From Candidatus Lloydbacteria bacterium (GTDB lineage Bacteria > Patescibacteriota > Minisyncoccia > Phycocordibacterales > 21-14-all-47-15), in contig JACROH010000001.1 of assembly GCA_016214545.1 (NCBI GenBank), positions 116,239 through 180,238 of the forward strand: a stretch of DNA of 64,000 bases, written 5' to 3'. Numbering within the stretch: the first letter of the stretch is position 1; each line of letters opens with the position of its first letter. Made by a program: the position numbers and the translations under genes. Of this stretch, positions 14,742-56,089 are shown one piece after another. The notes below the pieces were generated by a model. The model saw only the letters and a list, made by a program, of their open reading frames with translations, did not search any database and was not told the origin of the DNA.

Positions 14742-15773
14742 ATGTCAATCATTATTTTTAAGCCGAAGCAAGTTACGAAGAAATTTTTGGCCGTGCTGCC
14801 GGAGCGTATTCGCGTTGTGGTTTCAGAACGGTTTGGATTAGGCCCCGACGGGACAAGAAAAACACTTGAGTCTATTGGTCAAAAATATGGCGTTACCCGA
14901 GAGCGTATCCGCCAAATTGAAGACTTCGGGCTTAAAAGCATACAAAAATCAGACGTATACAAAGACGAACAGGCGGTTTTTGATAATCTGAGAGAGGCGC
15001 TTGTTGAATACGGCGGAGGAGTGGCGCCGGAGAATCATTTTTTCAATCATGTGTCCAAAGACGAATCGACCCAAAATCATTTGCACCTCCTTTTAGTGTT
15101 GGGCGAGCCGTTTGAAAAAAAGAAGGAAGATGAAAAATTTGTACACCGATGGATTGTGGAAGAATCAATGGCAAAAACAGTGCACGATGCGCTTGAGCGG
15201 CTGGTTTCCGGTTTGAAAGAAGATGAGTTAATCACCGAAGATGATTTGCTCGAACGTTTCTACGGACACTTGAGCGGGGTGCCGTCAGAGTATCGCAATG
15301 AGACGATTGCCCGCCGATGGCTCTCTCTTTCAAAAATGATTGGTACGAATCCGCTTGGCGAATGGGGGATCGCCTCGTCTCCAAATGTGAATGCCCGCGG
15401 AATGCGCGACTATGCATTTTTGGTTATTCGCCGGCACGGTTCTCCCATGCACTTCACTGAAGTGGCAAAAGAAATCACCAAACTTTTCGGCAAAAAAGCG
15501 CACACCGCGACCTGTCACAATGAATTGATCAAAGACGGACGGTTTGTGCTTGTCGGACGGGGACTTTACGCTCTTACCGAATGGGGGTACGCACGCGGCA
15601 TCGTGCGCGATGTCATCAGCGATGTGTTAAAAGAACACGGCGCACTTTCAAAAGAAGAAATTATCGACAAAGTAATGCAAGAACGGTACGTCAAGCCGAA
15701 CACGATTATTGTGAATCTCCAAAACGGAAATTACTTCAAAAAAACCGATGAGGGCGATTACACCTTAGCGTAA
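14742..15773 (+). CDS. Sigma-70 region-4-like HTH domain protein (DNA-binding, function unknown)
   Basis: RFGLGPDGTRKTLESIGQKYGVTRERIRQIEDFGLKSI is a sigma-70 region-4-type helix-turn-helix; a second winged-helix-like segment lies near the C-terminus. Confidence 0.75.
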   Translation: MSIIIFKPKQVTKKFLAVLPERIRVVVSERFGLGPDGTRKTLESIGQKYGVTRERIRQIEDFGLKSIQKSDVYKDEQAVFDNLREALVEYGGGVAPENHFFNHVSKDESTQNHLHLLLVLGEPFEKKKEDEKFVHRWIVEESMAKTVHDALERLVSGLKEDELITEDDLLERFYGHLSGVPSEYRNETIARRWLSLSKMIGTNPLGEWGIASSPNVNARGMRDYAFLVIRRHGSPMHFTEVAKEITKLFGKKAHTATCHNELIKDGRFVLVGRGLYALTEWGYARGIVRDVISDVLKEHGALSKEEIIDKVMQERYVKPNTIIVNLQNGNYFKKTDEGDYTLA

Positions 15774-18128: not shown

Positions 18129-19490
18129 ATGAAAAAAGTCCATTGTATTGGCATCGGGGGAATTGGCGTGTCGGCGTTGGCACGATTTTTTCTGTCGCGC
18201 GGAATGCGGGTGAGCGGTTCGGACGGTAAAGACGGCTCGTGGAGGAAGTCTATTGAAGACGCGGGAGTGAAAGTTTTTATTGGACACGATGCGAAAAATA
18301 TTCCTCTCGATTGTGATTTGATTATTTATTCGTCAGCGGTGCCAGAAGACAATGCCGAAAGAAAAGAGGCGTTCCGTCGCAATATTCCGCAAAAGACTTA
18401 TGCGGAAGGGCTCGGCGAAGCGATGAAAGAATACGAAACGCGGATTGCCGTATCGGGGACGCACGGCAAAACGACGGCCACCGCGCTTTTGGGGCTTCTC
18501 TTTGAAGGGGCAAAGAAAGATCCGATGGTGATTGTCGGCGGGAAAGTCCCTTCGTGGAAGAGCAACTTCAGGAACGGGTGGGGAAGTGTTGCCATTGCCG
18601 AAGCGTGCGAATACGAAAGGGCGTTTGACGCGCTTTCTCCTACGGTTGCGATTGTGAACAATATTGAAGCCGACCATCTTGATTACTACCGCGATATTTT
18701 GGATGTTGAAAATGCCTTTGGAGATTTTGTGGAGAGACTGCCAAAAAACGGACTGCTTATCTACAACGCGGATGACGAGCGGGTACGGAGAATCGCTCTT
18801 CTGGCCAGATGCCGTGGCGCTTCTTTTGGCGTAAAAAATGATGCTGATGTTGTCGCGAAAAACAGGACGATGGGGGATGGAGGGCAGAGTTTTGATGTAT
18901 GGAGAAGGGGGGCGTTGCTTGGGCGCGTGATGCTCCATGTCCCCGGGGTTTTCAATATTTCAAACGCGCTCGCGGCACTTTCGTGCGCTCTTGAGCACGG
19001 CGTGCCGTTTTCGGAAGCAAAAAAGACGCTTGAATCTTTTGTAGGCAGCTGGCGGCGATTTGAAAAAACGGGAGAGATTGACGGCAAGCCGATGATTTCC
19101 GATTACGCGCATCATCCGACGGCGGTACGCGGAACCATAGAGGCGGCGAAAGAATTTTTCCCAGGCAAAAAAATACTCGCGGTATTTCAGCCGCACCAGC
19201 GTGATCGGACGCTCAAACTCTTTGATGAATTTGCTCGTGCCTTTGACGATGCGGATGGCGTCATTCTTTCCGAAATTTATGATGTCGCGGGCCGAAACGA
19301 AGCCGAAAAAGACATAAGCTCTTGCGAGCTTATGTCTGCCATTCAAAAAAGAAATCTAAAACAGGATGTTGCATACGCTCGTGATGTAGCGGAAACAAAA
19401 AAAATGATTCAGAAAAAAATAAATGATTTTGACGTCCTGCTCATTATGGGGGCGGGGGATATTGATACTATTGCAAGGAATATTTTTTGA
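18129..19490 (+). CDS. murC: UDP-N-acetylmuramate--L-alanine ligase
   Basis: MKKVHCIGIGGIGVSALARFFLSRGMRVSGSD Mur-ligase N-terminus; ATP-binding GTHGKTTATALL. Confidence 0.9.
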   Translation: MKKVHCIGIGGIGVSALARFFLSRGMRVSGSDGKDGSWRKSIEDAGVKVFIGHDAKNIPLDCDLIIYSSAVPEDNAERKEAFRRNIPQKTYAEGLGEAMKEYETRIAVSGTHGKTTATALLGLLFEGAKKDPMVIVGGKVPSWKSNFRNGWGSVAIAEACEYERAFDALSPTVAIVNNIEADHLDYYRDILDVENAFGDFVERLPKNGLLIYNADDERVRRIALLARCRGASFGVKNDADVVAKNRTMGDGGQSFDVWRRGALLGRVMLHVPGVFNISNALAALSCALEHGVPFSEAKKTLESFVGSWRRFEKTGEIDGKPMISDYAHHPTAVRGTIEAAKEFFPGKKILAVFQPHQRDRTLKLFDEFARAFDDADGVILSEIYDVAGRNEAEKDISSCELMSAIQKRNLKQDVAYARDVAETKKMIQKKINDFDVLLIMGAGDIDTIARNIF

Positions 19491-33053: not shown

Positions 33054-33493
33054 GGCTTTGTGTCGGGTAGTTGCCCCGCTCCGCGAAAAGCGGGACGGGG
33101 AGGAAAGTCCGAACACGGGCGCGTTGAAAGACGCGCGAGCAGGGTAGCGGGTAACGCCCGTCGTCCGCAAGGATAGAGGTGCGAGCAGAGACGCTTTGAT
33201 TCGAAAGGATCAAAGCTCCGACGGCAACGTCGGAGAGTCCCGATGGCAACATCGGGGGTGAAACGGCAAAATCCTTACCTCCGTGCAAGGCCGTGCCCCG
33301 CTTTTATGGCGGGGAGTGCCGCTTGAGGCGTTTGGCAACAAACGTCCCAGATAAATAACTATCGCCGAGCACCACTTTTGACGAAAGGTTTAGGTGTTAA
33401 AAAGTGATTCTGTGAGAATCACTTTTAATAACAGCTTTATTTTGTTTCAAAAGTGGTGCTCGGTACAGAATTCGGCTTATAGACACAAAGCCT
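33054..33493 (+). ncRNA. rnpB: RNase P RNA (bacterial type A) with an AT-rich insertion helix
   Basis: -10 tataat at 33041-46. P1 gctttgtgtc (5') pairs gacacaaagc (3'). Conserved GGGAGGAAAGTCCGAACAC, GCAGGGTAGCGGGTAACGCCCGT, GGTGAAACGGCAAAATCC and 3' ACAGAATTCGGCTTAT blocks. 14-bp stem 33366-33379/33451-33464 encloses ~70 nt of AT-rich sequence. Strong terminator follows. Confidence 0.85.
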
Positions 33494-33504
33494 TGAAGAT
33501 TCAT

Positions 33505-40212: not shown

Positions 40213-40218
40213 TTTTTT

Positions 40219-40289
40219 GCGGGTATAGTTTAGTGGCAGAATGGTTGCTTCCCAAGCAACAGATCGGAGTTCGATTCTCCGTACCCGCA
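40219..40289 (+). tRNA. tRNA-Gly (anticodon CCC)
   Basis: Cloverleaf folded by hand: acceptor GCGGGTA/TACCCGC, anticodon stem GTTGC/GCAAC with loop TTCCCAA, T-arm CGGAG-TTCGATT-CTCCG, discriminator A; no encoded CCA. Confidence 0.9.
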
Positions 40290-40309
40290 TCATGAGCCCT
40301 GCGAATGAG

Positions 40310-40467
40310 GTGGGTACAGCAAGCCAACTGCTTGGCTTGCGTGGAGAATCGAAAAGCGGAGCCATATTGCCAACAAGCAATGGCGAGCTGGGGTCGAGAG
40401 TACTTAGCAGATTTTGAGCGTAGCGAAGAAATCGCTTAGTAACTCGTGACCGATTCTCCGTACCCAC
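40310..40467 (+). other. tRNA-like element / degenerate tRNA-Gly paralog with a ~100-nt internal segment
   Basis: 5' GTGGGTA (40310-16) and 3' TACCCAC (40461-67) form a perfect 7-bp acceptor-like stem that differs from tRNA-Gly by a compensatory pair. 3' side repeats the tRNA-Gly T-loop (cgattctccgtaccc). Internal 7-bp hairpin gcaagcc/ggcttgc and a 9-bp long-range helix ggagaatcg/cgattctcc. No T-arm. Confidence 0.3.
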
Positions 40468-40601
40468 ATAAAAATAATAAAGAGTCAGGCGCGAAGAGGG
40501 AGCCGTTTATTGACATTTTAGTATCTTTACGTATAATATTTTTTAGGCTAGTTTAAAGTTTTTTATCTTTGTCATAAAATAAATAACTGAAAGGGAAAAT
40601 T

Positions 40602-40880
40602 ATGCCCACTCCTGTTTGGAAAGAGGGGTACGTTCCGCTTGAGAAAGGGGAATTGGTAGTCTTGATATGGCGGTGGGGACAGCCAAACAAAACGGAAGTT
40701 GACGCGGTCAGTGTATCCTCGGATGAGCTGCTCCATCATCCGTGCGGAGGGCGTCTCATCGTAAAGCCGGTGGAGAAAAATAAAGAACTCTCTTGTCAAA
40801 AATGTGGTTTTTGGACGGTCTTTCCGGAAGAAATAAAAACTCTGGGAGAACTCAAGAGTTTCCTTGCAAAAGAATCTTGA
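40602..40880 (+). CDS. Small zinc-ribbon-like protein, hypothetical
   Basis: 92 aa; HHPCGG...CQKCG pattern; RBS gaaaggga upstream; first gene after the tRNA-Gly region. Confidence 0.55.
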   Translation: MPTPVWKEGYVPLEKGELVVLIWRWGQPNKTEVDAVSVSSDELLHHPCGGRLIVKPVEKNKELSCQKCGFWTVFPEEIKTLGELKSFLAKES

Positions 40881-40923
40881 TTGCATAAAGTGTTTTTCCA
40901 AACGGTATTGAAAGGAGCGTACA

Positions 40924-41532
40924 ATGGAAGAAAGACAGAAAAAGATTATTTTTTTGAAAGGTAAAAAAGTTAATCTCCGTCCGTTGCGTAAAGCAACCGA
41001 CTTTGAATCGTGTCTTCGTTGGATTAACGATTGCGAAGTGAATCAGTATCTTGCTACCTATCTTCCAATGTCAGAACAAAAAGAGGAAGAATGGTTCGAT
41101 AAAACCTCAAAAAGCAGTGACAATATCGTTTTTGCGATTGAGGTTTCGGATGTCCTGAATGGCGGCATGCCTATCGGACTCATCGGGCTTCACAACATTA
41201 ATTGGAAAGACCGCACGGCTGTAACCGGAGCGGTAATCGGAGAAAAAGAATATTGGAATCAGGGTTATGGCACTGATGCCAAAATGTTGATCCTCGAGTA
41301 TGCCTTTAATACGCTCAATCTTCACAAGATTTGTTCCTCGGTAGTGGAGTTTAATAAGCGAAGTTTGCAGTACAATCTGCACTGTGGTTACAAACTTGAG
41401 GGAACAGAGCGCAAGCAGGTCTTCAAAAGAGGCAGATATTGGGATAAGTATATTTTGGGAGTGTTCAAAAACGATTGGCTACCGGTTTGGAGGACGTACC
41501 AAAAAACCGGAAAAGTAAAAGAAAAAATATAA
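40924..41532 (+). CDS. GNAT-family N-acetyltransferase (RimJ/RimL-like)
   Basis: VNLRPLRKATDFESCLRWINDCEVNQYL...GLIGLHNINWKDRTAVTGAVIGEKEYWNQGYGTDAKMLILEYAFNTLNLHKI matches the Acetyltransf_3 / RimL pattern. Confidence 0.85.
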   Translation: MEERQKKIIFLKGKKVNLRPLRKATDFESCLRWINDCEVNQYLATYLPMSEQKEEEWFDKTSKSSDNIVFAIEVSDVLNGGMPIGLIGLHNINWKDRTAVTGAVIGEKEYWNQGYGTDAKMLILEYAFNTLNLHKICSSVVEFNKRSLQYNLHCGYKLEGTERKQVFKRGRYWDKYILGVFKNDWLPVWRTYQKTGKVKEKI

Positions 41533-41534
41533 TC

Positions 41535-41653
41535 TTTTCAAAAAAGCCGCTACAATGTAGCGGCTTTTGTTTTTTTCTGGATTCATGCTATCGTACGGGA
41601 AGTTAAAAAAGAACATTGAAAAATCAAAGGAAAGGAGAAGGAAGATGAATATT
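41535..41653 (+). repeat. 119-bp module copy 1: terminator hairpin, promoter-like region, RBS, ATG AAT ATT
   Basis: ttttcaaaaaagccgctacaatgtagcggcttttgtttttttctggattcatgctatcgtacgggaagttaaaaaagaacattgaaaaatcaaaggaaaggagaaggaagatgaatatt; 100% identical to 42566-42684. Confidence 0.9.
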
Positions 41654-42502
41654 TTAGACTTAGATTGTCTGAAACGTTTACAGAATTGGGTAGCTGACAA
41701 CGAGCGCCGTATGCGCGGAGCGGGTCCTCGTTGGGAAATGTATAAAAGATTAGCTCGCGACCTGGTGGATAAAGGAGATTGGTTTTGGATTCCGCTTGAT
41801 AGCGGGACACAAATACCGCTTATTGATGCACTGCTCTACCTAGCAGAGATTTCTGACCGAAAATCGATTCCAAGATTAAAGAAACTTGTCAAAAGATATA
41901 CCGCCCCATCTCCAAACTCAAAAAACGAGGACGAGTGGCGAGCATGCCGAGGAGGTGGCTTTGTGAAGGCGCTCTATGGGCCAGCCGATGAGATACCCAA
42001 GGAGGTTCAAAGGCGGGCAATTGAATCGCTTCTCAGGTTACTTTCTCTCCCGGAAGCAAAGAAATATACAGAAGAGCTGTTTGACGAAATTGATATAGAA
42101 AGCTTAGACTGGAGAACCATAAAGACGCTAACGGGTTTCATCGAAAAAAATAAAATGGCGGAATTTTCCTCGAGGGTATTAAAATTAGGCAAAACCATGA
42201 AATTTATTTTTGATGGATGTTCCAAGTCGTTTAATAGTTTATATGGGTATGAAGAGTTAGTTTTTTGTGCCTTTAATATCTCGGAAGAGAACGCAGAAAA
42301 AAAAGAAGCGTGGTGGATTCTAATTGAAGAATATAATCATCCCGACGGTTATGATAAATACAAAAGATCACATGACAGGATCGATCTTATTTTGTGTGAA
42401 ATCGTGGACCGTGAACGCCGAGAAGGACAATCGAGAACAGAGCCTCTCCTTGATCAAAGACGTCTTGCGAAAGACATGCCTTATTACAGAAAACATTACT
42501 GA
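41645..42502 (+). CDS. Hypothetical protein A (285 aa), first gene driven by the duplicated module
   Basis: Starts MNILDLDCLKRLQNW at the module ATG; RBS aaggagaagg; ~42% GC; no recognisable domain. Confidence 0.7.
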   Translation: MNILDLDCLKRLQNWVADNERRMRGAGPRWEMYKRLARDLVDKGDWFWIPLDSGTQIPLIDALLYLAEISDRKSIPRLKKLVKRYTAPSPNSKNEDEWRACRGGGFVKALYGPADEIPKEVQRRAIESLLRLLSLPEAKKYTEELFDEIDIESLDWRTIKTLTGFIEKNKMAEFSSRVLKLGKTMKFIFDGCSKSFNSLYGYEELVFCAFNISEENAEKKEAWWILIEEYNHPDGYDKYKRSHDRIDLILCEIVDRERREGQSRTEPLLDQRRLAKDMPYYRKHY

Positions 42503-42565
42503 ATAAACTTCAAAAAACAGGAAAGGTGCCTGAAAAAAGATCCGTAATAAAGAAAGTTTTTTAAA

Positions 42566-42684
42566 TTTTCAAAAAAGCCGCTACAATGTAGCGGCTTTTG
42601 TTTTTTTCTGGATTCATGCTATCGTACGGGAAGTTAAAAAAGAACATTGAAAAATCAAAGGAAAGGAGAAGGAAGATGAATATT
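42566..42684 (+). repeat. 119-bp module copy 2 (identical to copy 1)
   Basis: Exact repeat 1,031 bp downstream of copy 1, again ending in ATG AAT ATT, which starts gene B. Confidence 0.9.
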
Positions 42685-42942
42685 ATTGGCGGATTTTTGT
42701 GTTCAGTTGGTCTGCATAAATTTGAAAAGGAACCGTCCCTGAAGGAGCCGATTAAAATGACGGGTGTGCACTTTGCCTTTTGGAGTGAGGCTGTTCAAAA
42801 AGGCGTCAAGAAGTGCTTAAGGGATGGTTGCGAAGCCACCAAGAAGGTATGGAGGCTAGGAATATATGGCCCCGGTGGCATGGCGAGTGAATGGGAGACA
42901 CTTGATGAAAAGAAAGAGAGGAAGAAAGATGAGTCCTATTGA
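42676..42942 (+). CDS. Hypothetical small protein B (88 aa)
   Basis: Starts MNIIGGFLCSVGLHKF at the module ATG; Cys/His scattered; KK/E-rich tail. Confidence 0.55.
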   Translation: MNIIGGFLCSVGLHKFEKEPSLKEPIKMTGVHFAFWSEAVQKGVKKCLRDGCEATKKVWRLGIYGPGGMASEWETLDEKKERKKDESY

Positions 42943-43189
42943 AAAAGGACCTACAGTAGTTACCATGCAATTTGATTGGGCGAATCACAGACACATTTTA
43001 GAAATGACCACATGCCGTGGGTCTGATCATTATTCTGGCGATAGAGAAGGGGAGGTGTGCTCGCTATGCCAGGAAGCCGCGAATCAGTCAGGAATTCCCC
43101 ACAAGGAACATTTCAAACATCCCCGTGACTGCAAATGTTTCCAGTGTGTGTTTTGTAAATGTTCAAAAGTCAACGAGCGCGATAAATAA
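42929..43189 (+). CDS. Hypothetical Cys-rich small protein C (86 aa), translationally coupled to B
   Basis: ATG 42929 overlaps the end of B by 14 nt; CRGSDHYSGDREGEVCSLCQ and HPRDCKCFQCVFCKC clusters suggest metal binding. Confidence 0.45.
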   Translation: MSPIEKGPTVVTMQFDWANHRHILEMTTCRGSDHYSGDREGEVCSLCQEAANQSGIPHKEHFKHPRDCKCFQCVFCKCSKVNERDK

Positions 43190-43205
43190 TCTGCAATCTG
43201 CCAAT

Positions 43206-43246
43206 TTTTCAAAAAAGCCGCTACATTGTAGCGGCTTTTGTTTTTT
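43206..43246 (+). terminator. Third copy of the module hairpin only (1 mismatch); bidirectional terminator for gene C and the convergent dCMP deaminase gene
   Basis: ttttcaaaaaagccgctacattgtagcggcttttgtttttt. Confidence 0.8.
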
Positions 43247-43254
43247 ATTCTTCC

Positions 43255-43755
43255 TCACGTCATATTATTTTTTTGGTAACGAGTTTCTGTCGCCATGCCC
43301 GTAATTTTGTCAAATTGAATGTTGCTTATTCCCAACGTTTCGGTAACCAGGCGGCACCCATCGCACGCCCAATAGTGCCCGACGAGACAGAGTGTTGCTC
43401 CCGCAAGGGTTGCCCGCTCTTCCTTTGTAAATGCCTGAAGAACCTCATCTTTTGAGGGCCGAAGGTGACTCGCGAATACCGCCAATTCTTCCGGTTTTCG
43501 ATTTGGTCTGATGTTGAGACACGCCATTACCTCTGCGTGTAATGGCTGGCACAATTCATAATTGGTTCCGGTTTTGACGGTTATTCTCGGGCATACCGAT
43601 ACCGACTCGCCGTGAGAAAGCCCCAGAGGAGCGCATAGATTGCAGCCAGTGGAGAGTATCTCATTATTTTTGACAATAATGGCGCCCGTTTTTGTTTTTA
43701 AACAGGTGGAATGCTTGCTAAACCGACTTGCTATCTCAAAGAACCTTTTAGACAT
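43255..43755 (-). CDS. dCMP deaminase (ComEB-like cytidine/deoxycytidylate deaminase fold)
   Basis: MSKRFFEIASRFSKHSTCLKTKTGAIIVKNNEILSTGCN...PLHAEVMA...ACDGC: H(A)E and CxxC zinc-binding motifs. Confidence 0.85.
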   Translation of the reverse strand: MSKRFFEIASRFSKHSTCLKTKTGAIIVKNNEILSTGCNLCAPLGLSHGESVSVCPRITVKTGTNYELCQPLHAEVMACLNIRPNRKPEELAVFASHLRPSKDEVLQAFTKEERATLAGATLCLVGHYWACDGCRLVTETLGISNIQFDKITGMATETRYQKNNMT

Positions 43756-43827
43756 AGTGCTTCCTCCAAAATAGAGATTTCTATTTTTATGCTATACTAT
43801 GTATATCATATTTAACAATTAATCATA

Positions 43828-44070
43828 TTGCCTTATATGAAAAACGTATCAATTTACACGACGCCGACCTGCGGATATTGCCGAATGGCGAAAGATTTTT
43901 TTAAAGAGCATAATATTGCCTATATTGAATATGACGTCGCGGCCGATACGGAGAAACGCAAAGAAATGATAGACAAGAGCGGACAAATGGGGGTGCCGGT
44001 CATGTTTATCGGAAAGGACATGATCATCGGTTTCAATGAAGAAAAAATAAAATCGGCGTTGGGGATATAA
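43828..44070 (+). CDS. Glutaredoxin/NrdH-like redoxin
   Basis: VSIYTTPTCGYCRMAKDFFKEHNIAYIEYDV...GQMGVPVMFIG with CGYC active site. Confidence 0.8.
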   Translation: MPYMKNVSIYTTPTCGYCRMAKDFFKEHNIAYIEYDVAADTEKRKEMIDKSGQMGVPVMFIGKDMIIGFNEEKIKSALGI

Positions 44071-44133
44071 TCAGTACAACAAAAAACTCGCCAAGAAATG
44101 GCGAGTTTTTTGTTTCATCATGCTTTATTGTTA

Positions 44134-44205
44134 TGCCCCCGGCAGGAATTGAACCTACATCTATCCCTTAGGACGGGACTGTTCTATCCGTTGAACTACA
44201 GGGGC
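44134..44205 (-). tRNA. tRNA-Arg (anticodon CCT)
   Basis: Reverse complement folds: acceptor GCCCCTG/CGGGGGC (one G-U), D-arm GTTC/GAAC, anticodon stem GTCCC/GGGAT with loop GTCCTAA, T-arm GTAGG-TTCAATT-CCTGC. Confidence 0.85.
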
Positions 44206-44274: not shown

Positions 44275-44541
44275 ATGATGGAACCGGATATACAAAAGCT
44301 GCTCAAAGAAAATCTGGCGTTGTCGGAGGAGAACAATAAGATACTAAAACGCCTACAGAGTAACATGCGATGGGGGAGATTTTTGCATGCCGTATATTGG
44401 GTTATTATTATCGGTTCGGCATTTGGCGCGTATTATTTTGCACAGCCGTATATCAATCAGCTTATGCAGATGTATGGGAAGCTGCAAAGTATCGGCGGTT
44501 CCGTTTCTCCGAATATATTGGACGCGCTCAAATCTTTTTAA
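44275..44541 (+). CDS. Small hypothetical membrane protein (88 aa)
   Basis: ORF between two tRNA genes with one TM helix (FLHAVYWVIIIGSAFGAYYFA). Confidence 0.45.
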   Translation: MMEPDIQKLLKENLALSEENNKILKRLQSNMRWGRFLHAVYWVIIIGSAFGAYYFAQPYINQLMQMYGKLQSIGGSVSPNILDALKSF

Positions 44542-44593: not shown

Positions 44594-44667
44594 GCCGAGG
44601 TAGCTCAGTTGGTTAGAGCATTTGCCTGAAGAGCAAAGGGTCGGCGGTTCGACTCCGCCCCTCGGCA
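44594..44667 (+). tRNA. tRNA-Phe (anticodon GAA)
   Basis: GCCGAGG-TA-GCTCAGTTGGTTAGAGC-A-TTTGC-CTGAAGA-GCAAA-GGGTC-GGCGG-TTCGACT-CCGCC-CCTCGGC-A, then CC. Confidence 0.9.
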
Positions 44668-44725
44668 CCGAACGAAGTAAAACGAAGTGAGGAGACGAGG
44701 GGGCTTTGTGCTGCGCGTAGCGGAC

Positions 44726-44754: not shown

Positions 44755-44841
44755 TAAAAACAGCTAAAAAGTTCTTTGTTGATTCTGCATCATCGGTGCC
44801 ATCATCGAAAAATCGAAAACCCACAACAAAAGGAGATCACA

Positions 44842-45480
44842 ATGTCTAAGGCCGTAGAAAGCGTTCGTCTAATTGCAGTGCAGTTCAGTTTTTCAAACCC
44901 CCGGGCAATTCCGTCAACGATAAGGAGGCTTAATGCCGAAACTGCGGCAGAAAGCGCGAGGAGACGGCTCAAAAATGAGCACGGCGACGGTTATGTTATT
45001 CTCAAACCGACGGAAAATTGCTCGCTCGCGAAGCTTCCTGGTGAACTCAGTACGGCCGGATATACATTGGTAGATGCATTTTACCAAGAACGCCTCAAAT
45101 CCGGGAGATTGTATCATATGGTGCGCTTTCTGTTTTCGCGTGAAAAGCCGGCGATATATGACTCGACAAACATGCAAAGGGCGCTGAATGAGATTGATTT
45201 CAAGGATATGTGCAACAGTGCTTTGTGGCGGGCGCAGGTATTTTCAAATCTTTTCTACGGACACGAAAAGATGCCTACCGGTGAGCGTGTTGTGAATATC
45301 GCTCTCGTGGCGCGGCAGCCGCTCTTTCGCCCTGATGGCACACCGGTAATGGTCTGGCAAAAGGGTGAGGATGGCGAAAGGATTGGAGATAGCCCGCGGC
45401 CATTAAGTGCAGAGTATTATCTCCGCATCAAAGAAGTTGTTGCCGATGTGGCGTTGACGGCCACGGAGAGTGCCGATTAA
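44842..45480 (+). CDS. Hypothetical protein (212 aa)
   Basis: ATG 44842 preceded by aaaggag RBS, within ORF 44776; no known motif; strong terminator downstream. Confidence 0.75.
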   Translation: MSKAVESVRLIAVQFSFSNPRAIPSTIRRLNAETAAESARRRLKNEHGDGYVILKPTENCSLAKLPGELSTAGYTLVDAFYQERLKSGRLYHMVRFLFSREKPAIYDSTNMQRALNEIDFKDMCNSALWRAQVFSNLFYGHEKMPTGERVVNIALVARQPLFRPDGTPVMVWQKGEDGERIGDSPRPLSAEYYLRIKEVVADVALTATESAD

Positions 45481-55648: not shown

Positions 55649-55740
55649 AAAAAGACCTGATAATGTTGATTTAAAAATACCCGTATGCCGCTGGTGTACG
55701 GGTATTTTTATTTGGCTTCAAATCGCGAAGTTTCAATCTG

Positions 55741-55758
55741 CGGAGAGGGAGGGATTCG
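55741..55758 (+). repeat. 18-bp exact direct repeat of the tRNA-Ser 3' end (cggagagggagggattcg); att-like
   Basis: Identical to 55941-55958, exactly 200 bp away, on the side beyond the tRNA 3' end. Confidence 0.7.
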
Positions 55759-55940
55759 GTCAGGAGTCGGTTATTTTTATACTACGCTTCGCTTCGTTAA
55801 AAATATACCGCTCACGACCCTGGCTCGGCGGAAAGAAAAGTTTTGCAAACTTTCCTCCGCCTCCGCCTTTCTAATCCCTCCTCGCGTCGATAGACGCCAA
55901 ATTTTGATAGCTATGAAAACGCTATCAAAATTTGTCGTTA

Positions 55941-56027
55941 CGGAGAGGGAGGGATTCGAACCCTCGATCCAGTTACCCGGATGCCGGTTTTCGAAACCGG
56001 TGCCTTCGACCACTCAGCCACCTCTCC
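55941..56027 (-). tRNA. tRNA-Ser (anticodon CGA), long variable arm
   Basis: Reverse complement GGAGAGG-TG-GCTGAGTGGTCGAAGGC-A-CCGGT-TTCGAAA-ACCGG-CATCCGGGTAACTGGATC-GAGGG-TTCGAAT-CCCTC-CCTCTCC-G. Confidence 0.85.
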
Positions 56028-56089
56028 ATCGGAGCCTATAATAGCACGCCCTTGTGTTTTTTTGAATGTTTGTTATGATAAAGCGCATT

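Follow-up and report, generated by a model that had tools for sequence, protein, structure and literature searches.

The locus described here is an islet of about 3.8 kb, positions 40290-44133, located between a tRNA-Gly(CCC) gene and a tRNA-Arg(CCT) gene in a metagenome-assembled genome (MAG) of Candidatus Lloydbacteria, a member of the Candidate Phyla Radiation (CPR)/Parcubacteria. It was studied within a 64,000-nt stretch of DNA from this genome, referred to below as the window. Reading from the tRNA-Gly gene, the islet contains a structured element which trails the tRNA, a consensus promoter, genes for a small zinc-ribbon-like protein (ZnR) and a GNAT N-acetyltransferase, two cassettes carrying gene A and genes B-C, a deaminase and a glutaredoxin (Grx). 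The positions of these features are listed in Table 1. The tRNA genes and the set of open reading frames (ORFs) given in an initial annotation of this DNA are as described there, and the coding frames are backed by a codon model. The deaminase, which had been called convergent as a pair with the glutaredoxin, converges with C and is transcribed away from the glutaredoxin. An exact look-up leads to the proteins MBI5004715-20 on a contig of 270,910 bp. The islet proteins all form singleton clusters at 90% identity, and close relatives exist for LepA and Grx.

Table 1. Features of the islet and of related positions in the window.
Feature	Position	Strand	Remarks
tRNA-Gly(CCC)	40218-40291	+	ARAGORN; Rfam tRNA, 68.1 bits
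tRNA-trailer element, sub-type B	40330-40473	+	Three-way junction P1 (arms)/P2/P3; 80.2 bits, E = 2e-20 with model R1 without this copy
Left arm of element	40310-40351	+	Antisense to tRNA-Gly 3′ end; GTGGGTAC 40310-40317, 25-nt hairpin 40318-40342, GGAGAATCG 40343-40351
Right arm of element	40451-40469	+	CGATTCTCCGTACCCACAT, 18/19 identical to tRNA-Gly 3′ end; 'partial duplicate' of the initial annotation
Consensus sigma-70-type promoter	40510-40537	+	TTGACA-16-TATAAT (12/12), 5′ of ZnR-GNAT
ZnR	40602-40880	+	92 aa, zinc-ribbon-like ORFan (HHPCGG...CQKCG)
GNAT N-acetyltransferase	40924-41532	+
Module copy 1	41535-41653	+	Terminator hairpin 41542-41568, U-tract, leader, ribosome-binding site (RBS), ATGAATATT
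Cassette gene A	41645-42502	+	285 aa
Module copy 2	42566-42684	+	5′ of B
Cassette gene B	42676-42942	+	88 aa, Cys/His (C9, H14, C47, C52)
Cassette gene C	42929-43189	+	86 aa, Cys/His-rich; 14-nt overlap with B; uncalled in NCBI annotation
Third terminator-hairpin copy	43203-43246	+	Hairpin 43213-43239
dCMP-deaminase-like zinc deaminase	43255-43755	-	166 aa
Glutaredoxin (Grx)	43837-44070	+
tRNA-Arg(CCT)	44134-44205	-	ARAGORN, Rfam
tRNA-Phe	44594-44669		ARAGORN, Rfam
Second tRNA-trailer element, sub-type A	55736-55892	-	48 nt downstream of tRNA-Ser(CGA) 55940-56028 (-); 139.6 bits

The islet differs in composition from its surroundings, as had been reported initially. Its GC content is 0.419 against a mean of 0.467 (sd 0.016) for all 3.8-kb intervals of the 64 kb, and a GC as low is reached in just 0.8% of them. 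The tetranucleotide composition is likewise within the 0.8% most deviant intervals, the top one of which (start 40501) overlaps the islet. Accessory DNA is not alone in its low GC: the Grx and GNAT segments (0.37 and 0.40), both conserved in siblings, have values no higher than those of the cassettes (0.42). A codon model, for which 24 long host ORFs were the training set, gives the annotated frame of every islet ORF the top score, with six frames scored for B and C. The scores of ZnR (0.206, ~0.21) and GNAT (0.23) are host-like, while those of A (0.11), B (0.08), the deaminase (0.02) and C (-0.05) all lie under 0.15, which is the 5th percentile for stretches of 90 codons in host genes.

A feature missed by the initial annotation is a perfect direct repeat of 119 nt, the terminator hairpin of which occurs a third time. 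The two copies of this module, in front of A and of B, are 100% identical and consist of an intrinsic terminator hairpin with a 12-bp stem and U-tract (AAAAGCCGCTACAATGTAGCGGCTTTT + U-tract, bidirectional), a leader of ~60 nt, a strong RBS and ATGAATATT. As the module ends in ATGAATATT, the first three codons of A, both A and B start with M-N-I. The third copy is the hairpin alone, located after C, where it also serves the convergent deaminase. There are no further occurrences of the hairpin or the leader in the window.

Sibling loci were gathered with LepA and DivIC relatives as anchors, followed by comparison of the DNA; the scan of genome contigs with DivIC yielded three loci. Six different sets of content are found between tRNA-Gly and Grx in six sibling or related loci, which bears out the earlier view of the locus as accessory and variable between close relatives. 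In the closest sibling, L001 (LepA 95% aa identity), the tRNA-Gly is followed by an element, a cytidine deaminase gene (cdd), GNAT (83% aa), a terminator, a ~50-nt remnant of the deaminase 3′ end and Grx (95%). L008 contains GNAT (76%) with its own terminator, a window-like leader, a 116-aa membrane ORF, the shared hairpin, Grx and tRNA-Arg on the minus strand. L011 has the initial 41 nt of the element seen in the window, then a terminator, the deaminase (82% aa) and Grx. Grx follows tRNA-Gly at once in L010, while the next gene is MscS in L003 and an unrelated minus-strand gene in L016.

The description of the islet as a single unit of ~3.8 kb with unrelated genes does not survive this comparison, as siblings carry orthologues of GNAT (83% and 76% aa), of the deaminase (82%) and of Grx (88-95%) at the corresponding locus. 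Grx is kept in every sibling locus long enough to cover its position. These three genes are recurrent residents of the locus, and the orthologue in L011 and the 3′-end remnant in L001 indicate that the deaminase is ancestral there. Private to the window genome are ZnR with its promoter segment, A and B-C. The promoter lies within this segment (40470-40873), which is without homology to the siblings; the position of ZnR is taken by cdd in L001 and by nothing in L008. At least four independent insertions or deletions separate the relatives compared, and together with the occurrence of shared genes in varied combinations this excludes one island of 3.8 kb.

The cassettes A and B-C are located exactly at the GNAT terminator. 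Relative to L001, positions 41578-43205 form a clean insertion with terminator copies at both ends. The hairpin after C, which is also present in L001, L008 and L011, is the ancestral terminator. The leader has a counterpart in L008 with 78% identity over ~65 nt, akin to the divergence of the flanking genes, where it precedes an unrelated ORF whose cargo slot also ends at the shared hairpin. Leader to terminator may thus be seen as a resident expression slot in which cargo is swapped and stacked, with recombination at the module as the simplest mechanism to propose. The ORF which fills the slot between GNAT and Grx in L008 (7566-7913, +) is uncalled and encodes 116 aa with predicted membrane helices.

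The islet is accordingly read as a strain-variable patchwork, a recombination hotspot beside a tRNA gene in a tiny-genome groundwater CPR bacterium, and not as a single integrated island (probability roughly 0.6). In this reading, a tRNA-trailer element of ~160 nt follows tRNA-Gly at the left edge, and a genome-specific segment contributes the consensus promoter and the zinc-ribbon ORFan. A SpeG/RimJ-type GNAT is resident, and the A and B-C cargo cassettes would have been inserted in tandem at its terminator, each with its own identical 119-nt copy of terminator, leader, RBS and ATGAATATT. The divergent deaminase/glutaredoxin pair, putatively of nucleotide metabolism, is ancestral and followed by tRNA-Arg. 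Once DNA had been taken up, the repeated hairpin/leader modules may have served as sites of homologous or unequal recombination by which cargo was swapped and stacked, and the cargo genes would be expressed from the resident leader. For the cargo itself, putative roles are a HEAT-like protein-binding scaffold for A and small zinc-binding proteins for B and C. The islet is in itself an ordinary kind of strain-variable tRNA-side hotspot; it illustrates that tiny CPR genomes still exchange ORFan genes, as cassettes behind a reusable terminator-leader module and without an integrase.

The tRNA-Arg(CCT) of the window has the same orientation in L008 (8352-8425, -), whereas the tRNA-Arg of L001 (14767-14841, +) differs in sequence and is inverted relative to both. 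As it is different and inverted in the closest sibling, the hotspot reaches the tRNA-Arg gene itself. At the left edge of L010 (3755-3771, GCGGGTATAGTTTAGTGG) and L016 (~1466-1470), a 5′ fragment of a window-type tRNA-Gly closely precedes an entire tRNA-Gly(CCC) gene of another sequence type. This suggests that the tRNA-Gly gene was replaced by an incoming element in these two loci.

Among the islet proteins, GNAT belongs to Acetyltransf_3 (Pfam, 1.5e-23). Its best NCBIfam matches are PseH, SpeG and RimJ, all under the equivalog cut-offs, and a PDB sequence search gives SpeG/diamine N-acetyltransferases as the nearest solved structures (1.5e-11). No TacT/AtaT chain is present among its top 25 PDB matches, all of which are SpeG, diamine or AAC(6′) acetyltransferases. 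By these similarities it is a SpeG/PseH/RimJ-like enzyme and not a TacT/AtaT toxin.

The deaminase contains an HAE motif at 73-75 and a CxxC motif at 131-134 (ACDGC, 130-134). It scores 32.7 bits with PF00383 (cut-off 25), matches the dCMP deaminase PHROG at 1.7e-10 and has weak similarity to the solved dCMP deaminases 2hvv and 4p9c in the PDB. These H(C)AE/PCxxC motifs and the PF00383 match assign it to the cytidine/deoxycytidylate superfamily as a predicted dCMP deaminase/ComEB-like protein, for which dCMP is the putative substrate. Grx has a CGYC motif and scores 71.8 bits with PF00462 and 88.9 bits with TIGR02196 (cut-off 88.55), which places it with the YruB/NrdH-like glutaredoxins. A joint role in deoxynucleoside triphosphate metabolism is plausible for the deaminase and glutaredoxin families.

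The cassette proteins A, B and C had been described as belonging to no recognisable family. This stands for B and C, which have no homologues in the libraries searched, but not for A. A full HMMER search gives 35 other representatives of A in the representative library, an uncharacterised family, and its fold is confidently predicted as a HEAT-like alpha-solenoid of stacked antiparallel helix pairs. The model of A has no significant Foldseek match in the PDB or BFVD. AlphaFold2 prediction from the single sequence was uninformative (pLDDT 41). A word-indexed search of 5.8 billion proteins returned self matches alone for A, a result superseded by the HMMER search, and for C. B and ZnR are singletons in the 90%-identity clusters and have no match in the family, phage and PDB searches; of the three small proteins, C is the one covered by the large homology search. 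None of A, B, C and ZnR has a match in PADLOC, PHROGs, NCBIfam or Pfam. For B, C and ZnR, tblastn against phages gave nothing significant, and PDB sequences gave spurious low-complexity matches alone.

The A family also occurs as a domain in larger proteins of 401-1345 aa (P0039, P0042, P0044, P0047; L015 3224-7261), in which no Pfam domains were found. The gene for the 1345-aa member adjoins those of a TPR/Sel1 protein and a PMT_2 glycosyltransferase. The contexts of the A homologues are short or inconsistent.

Several points weigh against the patchwork reading. The related loci compared number about six, and neither a recombination intermediate nor a recombination enzyme was identified at the locus. 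The module leader is overlapped by weak sigma-70-like matches and nothing stronger. The gene status of B, C and ZnR, which are without homologues, depends on frame-specific codon scores. The tandem order GNAT-repeat-A-repeat-B-C is seen in one MAG assembly, across perfect 119-nt repeats, and an independent Logan assembly splits exactly at these repeats, where A and B-C are found on separate contigs of 972 nt and 1545 nt, respectively. As the Logan assembly breaks there, A and B-C could be alternative alleles of one leader/terminator slot, carried by co-existing strains and concatenated by the assembler. The single cargo in the L008 slot would fit such a strain mixture. However, the unique sequence after A runs into the repeat, so A must lie upstream of a module copy, and the tandem path is the sole linear path which uses all edges. 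The strain-mixture explanation is considered unlikely. The implicit model of the initial annotation, a classical integrase-mediated island of ~3.8 kb in the tRNA-Gly 3′ end with the partial duplicate as its attachment (att) scar, draws on the low GC, the deviant tetranucleotides, the direct repeat of the tRNA 3′ end, the tRNA-adjacent site and the private ORFans. The duplicate does exist, but instead of marking an island boundary it forms the right arm of a structured element that is widespread behind tRNA genes. It lies 179 nt from the tRNA and not at the far end, has no further copy within +/-3 kb, and the family to which its element belongs occurs after 17 tRNA species. Library scans of the seven islet ORFs revealed no integrase domain, and GNAT, the deaminase and Grx are shared with siblings which do not have the other genes, so the islet is not present or absent as a unit. 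An integrated island is thus very improbable.

The possibility that the locus is a GNAT-type toxin-antitoxin-like module, with a TacT/AtaT-like toxin neutralised by ZnR, B or C, is prompted by the small ORFs adjoining GNAT and by the promoter common to GNAT and ZnR. It is scarcely credible for an Acetyltransf_3 protein whose nearest relatives are PseH, SpeG, RimJ and SpeG/diamine acetyltransferase structures. The analogy with AtaT/TacT made in the initial annotation fails on this affinity, and also on the GNAT orthologues in L001 and L008, which occur without ZnR, A, B or C and have cdd or nothing upstream. The same annotation had found no ribbon-helix-helix (RHH) antitoxin evident, which agrees with the absence of an RHH match for ZnR; no other antitoxin domain was found and PADLOC gave no match. 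It is also rather unlikely that the cargo (ZnR, A, B and C) consists of phage-derived morons or of an uncharacterised anti-phage or anti-defence set in a hotspot resembling a defence island. The small Cys-rich ORFans, the atypical codon usage and the hotspot site are compatible with this, as is one A homologue (L013) whose contig is crowded with small hypothetical genes. Other A homologues (L014, L015) are situated among housekeeping genes, however, and the cargo has no PHROG, PADLOC, INPHARED or IMG/VR matches.

The patchwork reading can be compared with several known arrangements. tRNA-linked islands and the tycheposon cargo arrays of Prochlorococcus are examples of tRNA-adjacent islets or hotspots. 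The present locus shares with them low-GC variable genes, atypical codons, copies of tRNA 3′ ends and a content that differs among close relatives. Unlike these, it is without an integrase or a flanking att pair, is in part resident, and has its tRNA copy within a structured element. The promoter-early stem-loops (PeSL) of T4-type phages are mobile regulatory cassettes. Here, as with PeSL, small ORFans are bracketed by a repeated terminator stem-loop and expression signal, which provides homology for shuffling and tandem stacking. The differences are the bacterial chromosome, the three module copies at one locus and a promoter within the module that is putative. Integron arrays resemble the locus in having tandem one- or two-gene cassettes parted by a hairpin-forming repeat at one site. 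In contrast to integrons, there is no intI, the hairpin is a canonical GC-stem/U-tract terminator and every cassette carries a leader and RBS of its own; inspection of the repeat revealed no R″/R′ GTTRRRY boxes.

The element which trails tRNA-Gly leads to a more consequential result than the islet, as it is a member of a tRNA-trailer family. The block copied is the last 18 nt of tRNA-Gly (40272-40289), from C56 of the T-loop to the discriminator A73. The region 40310-40468 folds with a dG of -76.5 kcal/mol (z = -6.75 vs shuffles), and the closing helix is formed by pairing of GTGGGTAC...GGAGAATCG with CGATTCTCCGTACCCAC. A compensatory stem change is seen between GTGGGTAC/GTACCCAC in the window and GCGGGTAC/GTACCCGC in L001, where the homologous element has perfect 17-bp arms (z = -9.2). 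The family is defined by a three-way-junction core, AAAGGCGGAGG...CCGAGCCAGGG...CTGAC, together with P1 arms which match C56-73 of the upstream tRNA; the window copy is assigned to it by its model score and by its right arm. A scan of all window tRNAs for copies of their own ends brought up a second element behind tRNA-Ser(CGA), whose right arm reproduces 18 nt of the tRNA-Ser 3′ end without a mismatch. The core motifs AAAGGCGGAGG, CCGAGCCAGGG and GACTCCTGAC are common to the tRNA-Ser element and the Gly element of L001.

The element at tRNA-Gly varies among the siblings. It is of type B in the window, of type A in L001 and truncated in L011, and there is no element after tRNA-Gly in L008, L010 and L016. 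The sequence 3′ of the right arm in the window (TAAAAATAA..AGAG) matches that directly after tRNA-Gly in L001 and L010. The sequence directly 3′ of the tRNA in L016 is the one that follows the right arm in L001. These alignments show that the element is dynamic among siblings. An exact copy of the 15-mer CGATTCTCCGTACCC, from the tRNA-Gly 3′ end and element arm, is also found at 18781-18795 (-) within a MurC-like ORF (18129-19490, +). With a chance expectation of ~0.02 at <=2 mismatches, its occurrence in this conserved coding sequence is probably a coincidence.

The wider family was assembled from a metagenome scan with the core pattern, which gave 38 contigs, about 32 of them genuine; L019, L029, L044 and L045 were excluded as false positives. 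The layout is constant over ~150-160 nt. The tRNA is followed by a palindromic, often terminator-like hairpin of ~45 nt (H0), a left arm of 9-17 nt, the core and the right arm. The core begins with CGAAA, continues with P2 (GGC-GGA-GGC, a variable hairpin, GCC-GA-GCC) and AGGG, and ends with P3, a variable hairpin closed by TCGTGAG/CTCCTGAC or by the covarying CAGTGAC/GTCACGC. The block of identity between tRNA and right arm always starts at C56 of the T-loop and is usually 18 nt long, extending to the discriminator. A scan of the metagenomes with a 41-nt tRNA-Gly pattern gave 0 matches, and viral contigs gave 0 matches each for the core pattern, the terminator and the type-B arm.

RNAalifold on 17 copies predicts a three-way junction with strong covariation, compensatory changes being present in 16 of its 24 pairs. 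These 17 copies, with the window Gly copy outside the seed, were used to build the covariance model R1, which gives 44 hits (40 distinct sequences) in 29 sources. In the R1 alignment, 95.1% of the cells pair, compared with 73% after shuffling and 33-47% with the partners slid, and double changes occur in 22 of 24 pairs, a count which leans towards the structure because the alignment is fitted to the model. More than half of the hits (24/44) lie 39-67 nt after a tRNA on the same strand; a further 7 stand in tandem behind another copy, 1 is at a contig edge and 12 have no tRNA called nearby. The 17 tRNA species which precede elements comprise Ser with three anticodons, Gly with three, Glu and Leu with two each, and Trp, Lys, Met, His, Val, Tyr and Pro. 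No protein family was found to recur beside the elements. The ratio of G-U to A-C pairs is 14:4 in the core helices and 12:12 in P1, and the G-U excess is a weak hint of an RNA or single-strand role for the tRNA-sense strand.

Tandem arrays of the element also occur. In L024 (1-271, -), a 172-nt unit is repeated, each copy bounded by a tRNA-Trp 3′ copy, and in L018 (4546-5101) and L036 (345-900) a type A unit is followed by a type B unit after tRNA-Lys.

At Rfam 15, no family overlaps the elements at E <= 1 in the window and seven element-bearing loci, and the literature searches made for the tRNA-trailer element brought up no description of it. The literature on a tRNA group I intron of Patescibacteria concerns position 35/36 and is unrelated to the element. 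Known classes were considered and rejected. A type II hammerhead has a similar junction order, but the CUGANGA/GAAA core and an Rfam match are absent. A retroviral-type primer-binding site would contain the CCA complement, which is absent, and the element is far too small for a group I intron. A guide RNA of IS200/IS605 or IS110 was discarded as there is no linked transposase.

Somewhat tentatively, and at less than even odds, the element is placed in an undescribed class of CPR-type bacteria which would be specific to the 3′ flank of tRNA genes, being either a homing, protein-less miniature mobile element or a cis-acting RNA. As a mobile element, it would home to any tRNA 3′ end by base-pairing or templated copying and leave an 18-bp duplication. 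Tandem arrays would then arise by rolling-circle-like multiplication or unequal crossing-over, and the elements would seed recombination hotspots. As an RNA, its left arm would toggle between the tRNA 3′ half and the right arm as a decoy, by which tRNA maturation would be coupled to a junction that binds a ligand or a protein. A mobile element would represent a new way of targeting tRNA genes, and in CPR genomes many of the short sequences called as 'att-like tRNA fragment' would then not be island scars. A functional RNA would constitute a new class tied to the biogenesis of tRNAs, in organisms whose regulatory repertoires are minimal.

Each of these possibilities has known counterparts. The folded-hairpin attP of CTX-phi-type elements and the MITE/REPIN-like miniature elements are comparators on the mobile side. 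Like them, the trailer consists of a target copy, a short spacer, an inverted copy, a structured loop and a direct copy, forms tandem arrays and encodes no protein. Unlike them, it targets the T-loop-to-3′ end of many tRNAs and not dif, with arms that match each tRNA; its core is a covarying conserved three-way junction, and no recombinase was identified. On the RNA side, P1-switching riboswitch aptamers and tRNA-like minihelix RNAs have a similar conserved junction with variable tips and P1 closure, and one P1 strand of the trailer could pair instead with the tRNA 3′ half. In contrast to riboswitches, the trailer is situated after a tRNA, downstream of a terminator-like hairpin, and not in a 5′ untranslated region; it belongs to no Rfam family and any ligand is putative.

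Beyond the islet, two conserved hypothetical genes flank tRNA-Phe in the window and are syntenic in L001, one of 88 aa with a membrane helix (44275-44541) and one of 213 aa (44839-45480). L001 has an additional insertion of ~116 nt directly 5′ of the 88-aa gene (14900-15015), and the 213-aa gene is absent from L008. Further upstream, the window contains a bacterial class A RNase P RNA (33055-33495, +; 118.5 bits) of ~440 nt. The model has 367 positions, and the RNA of the window probably carries insertions.

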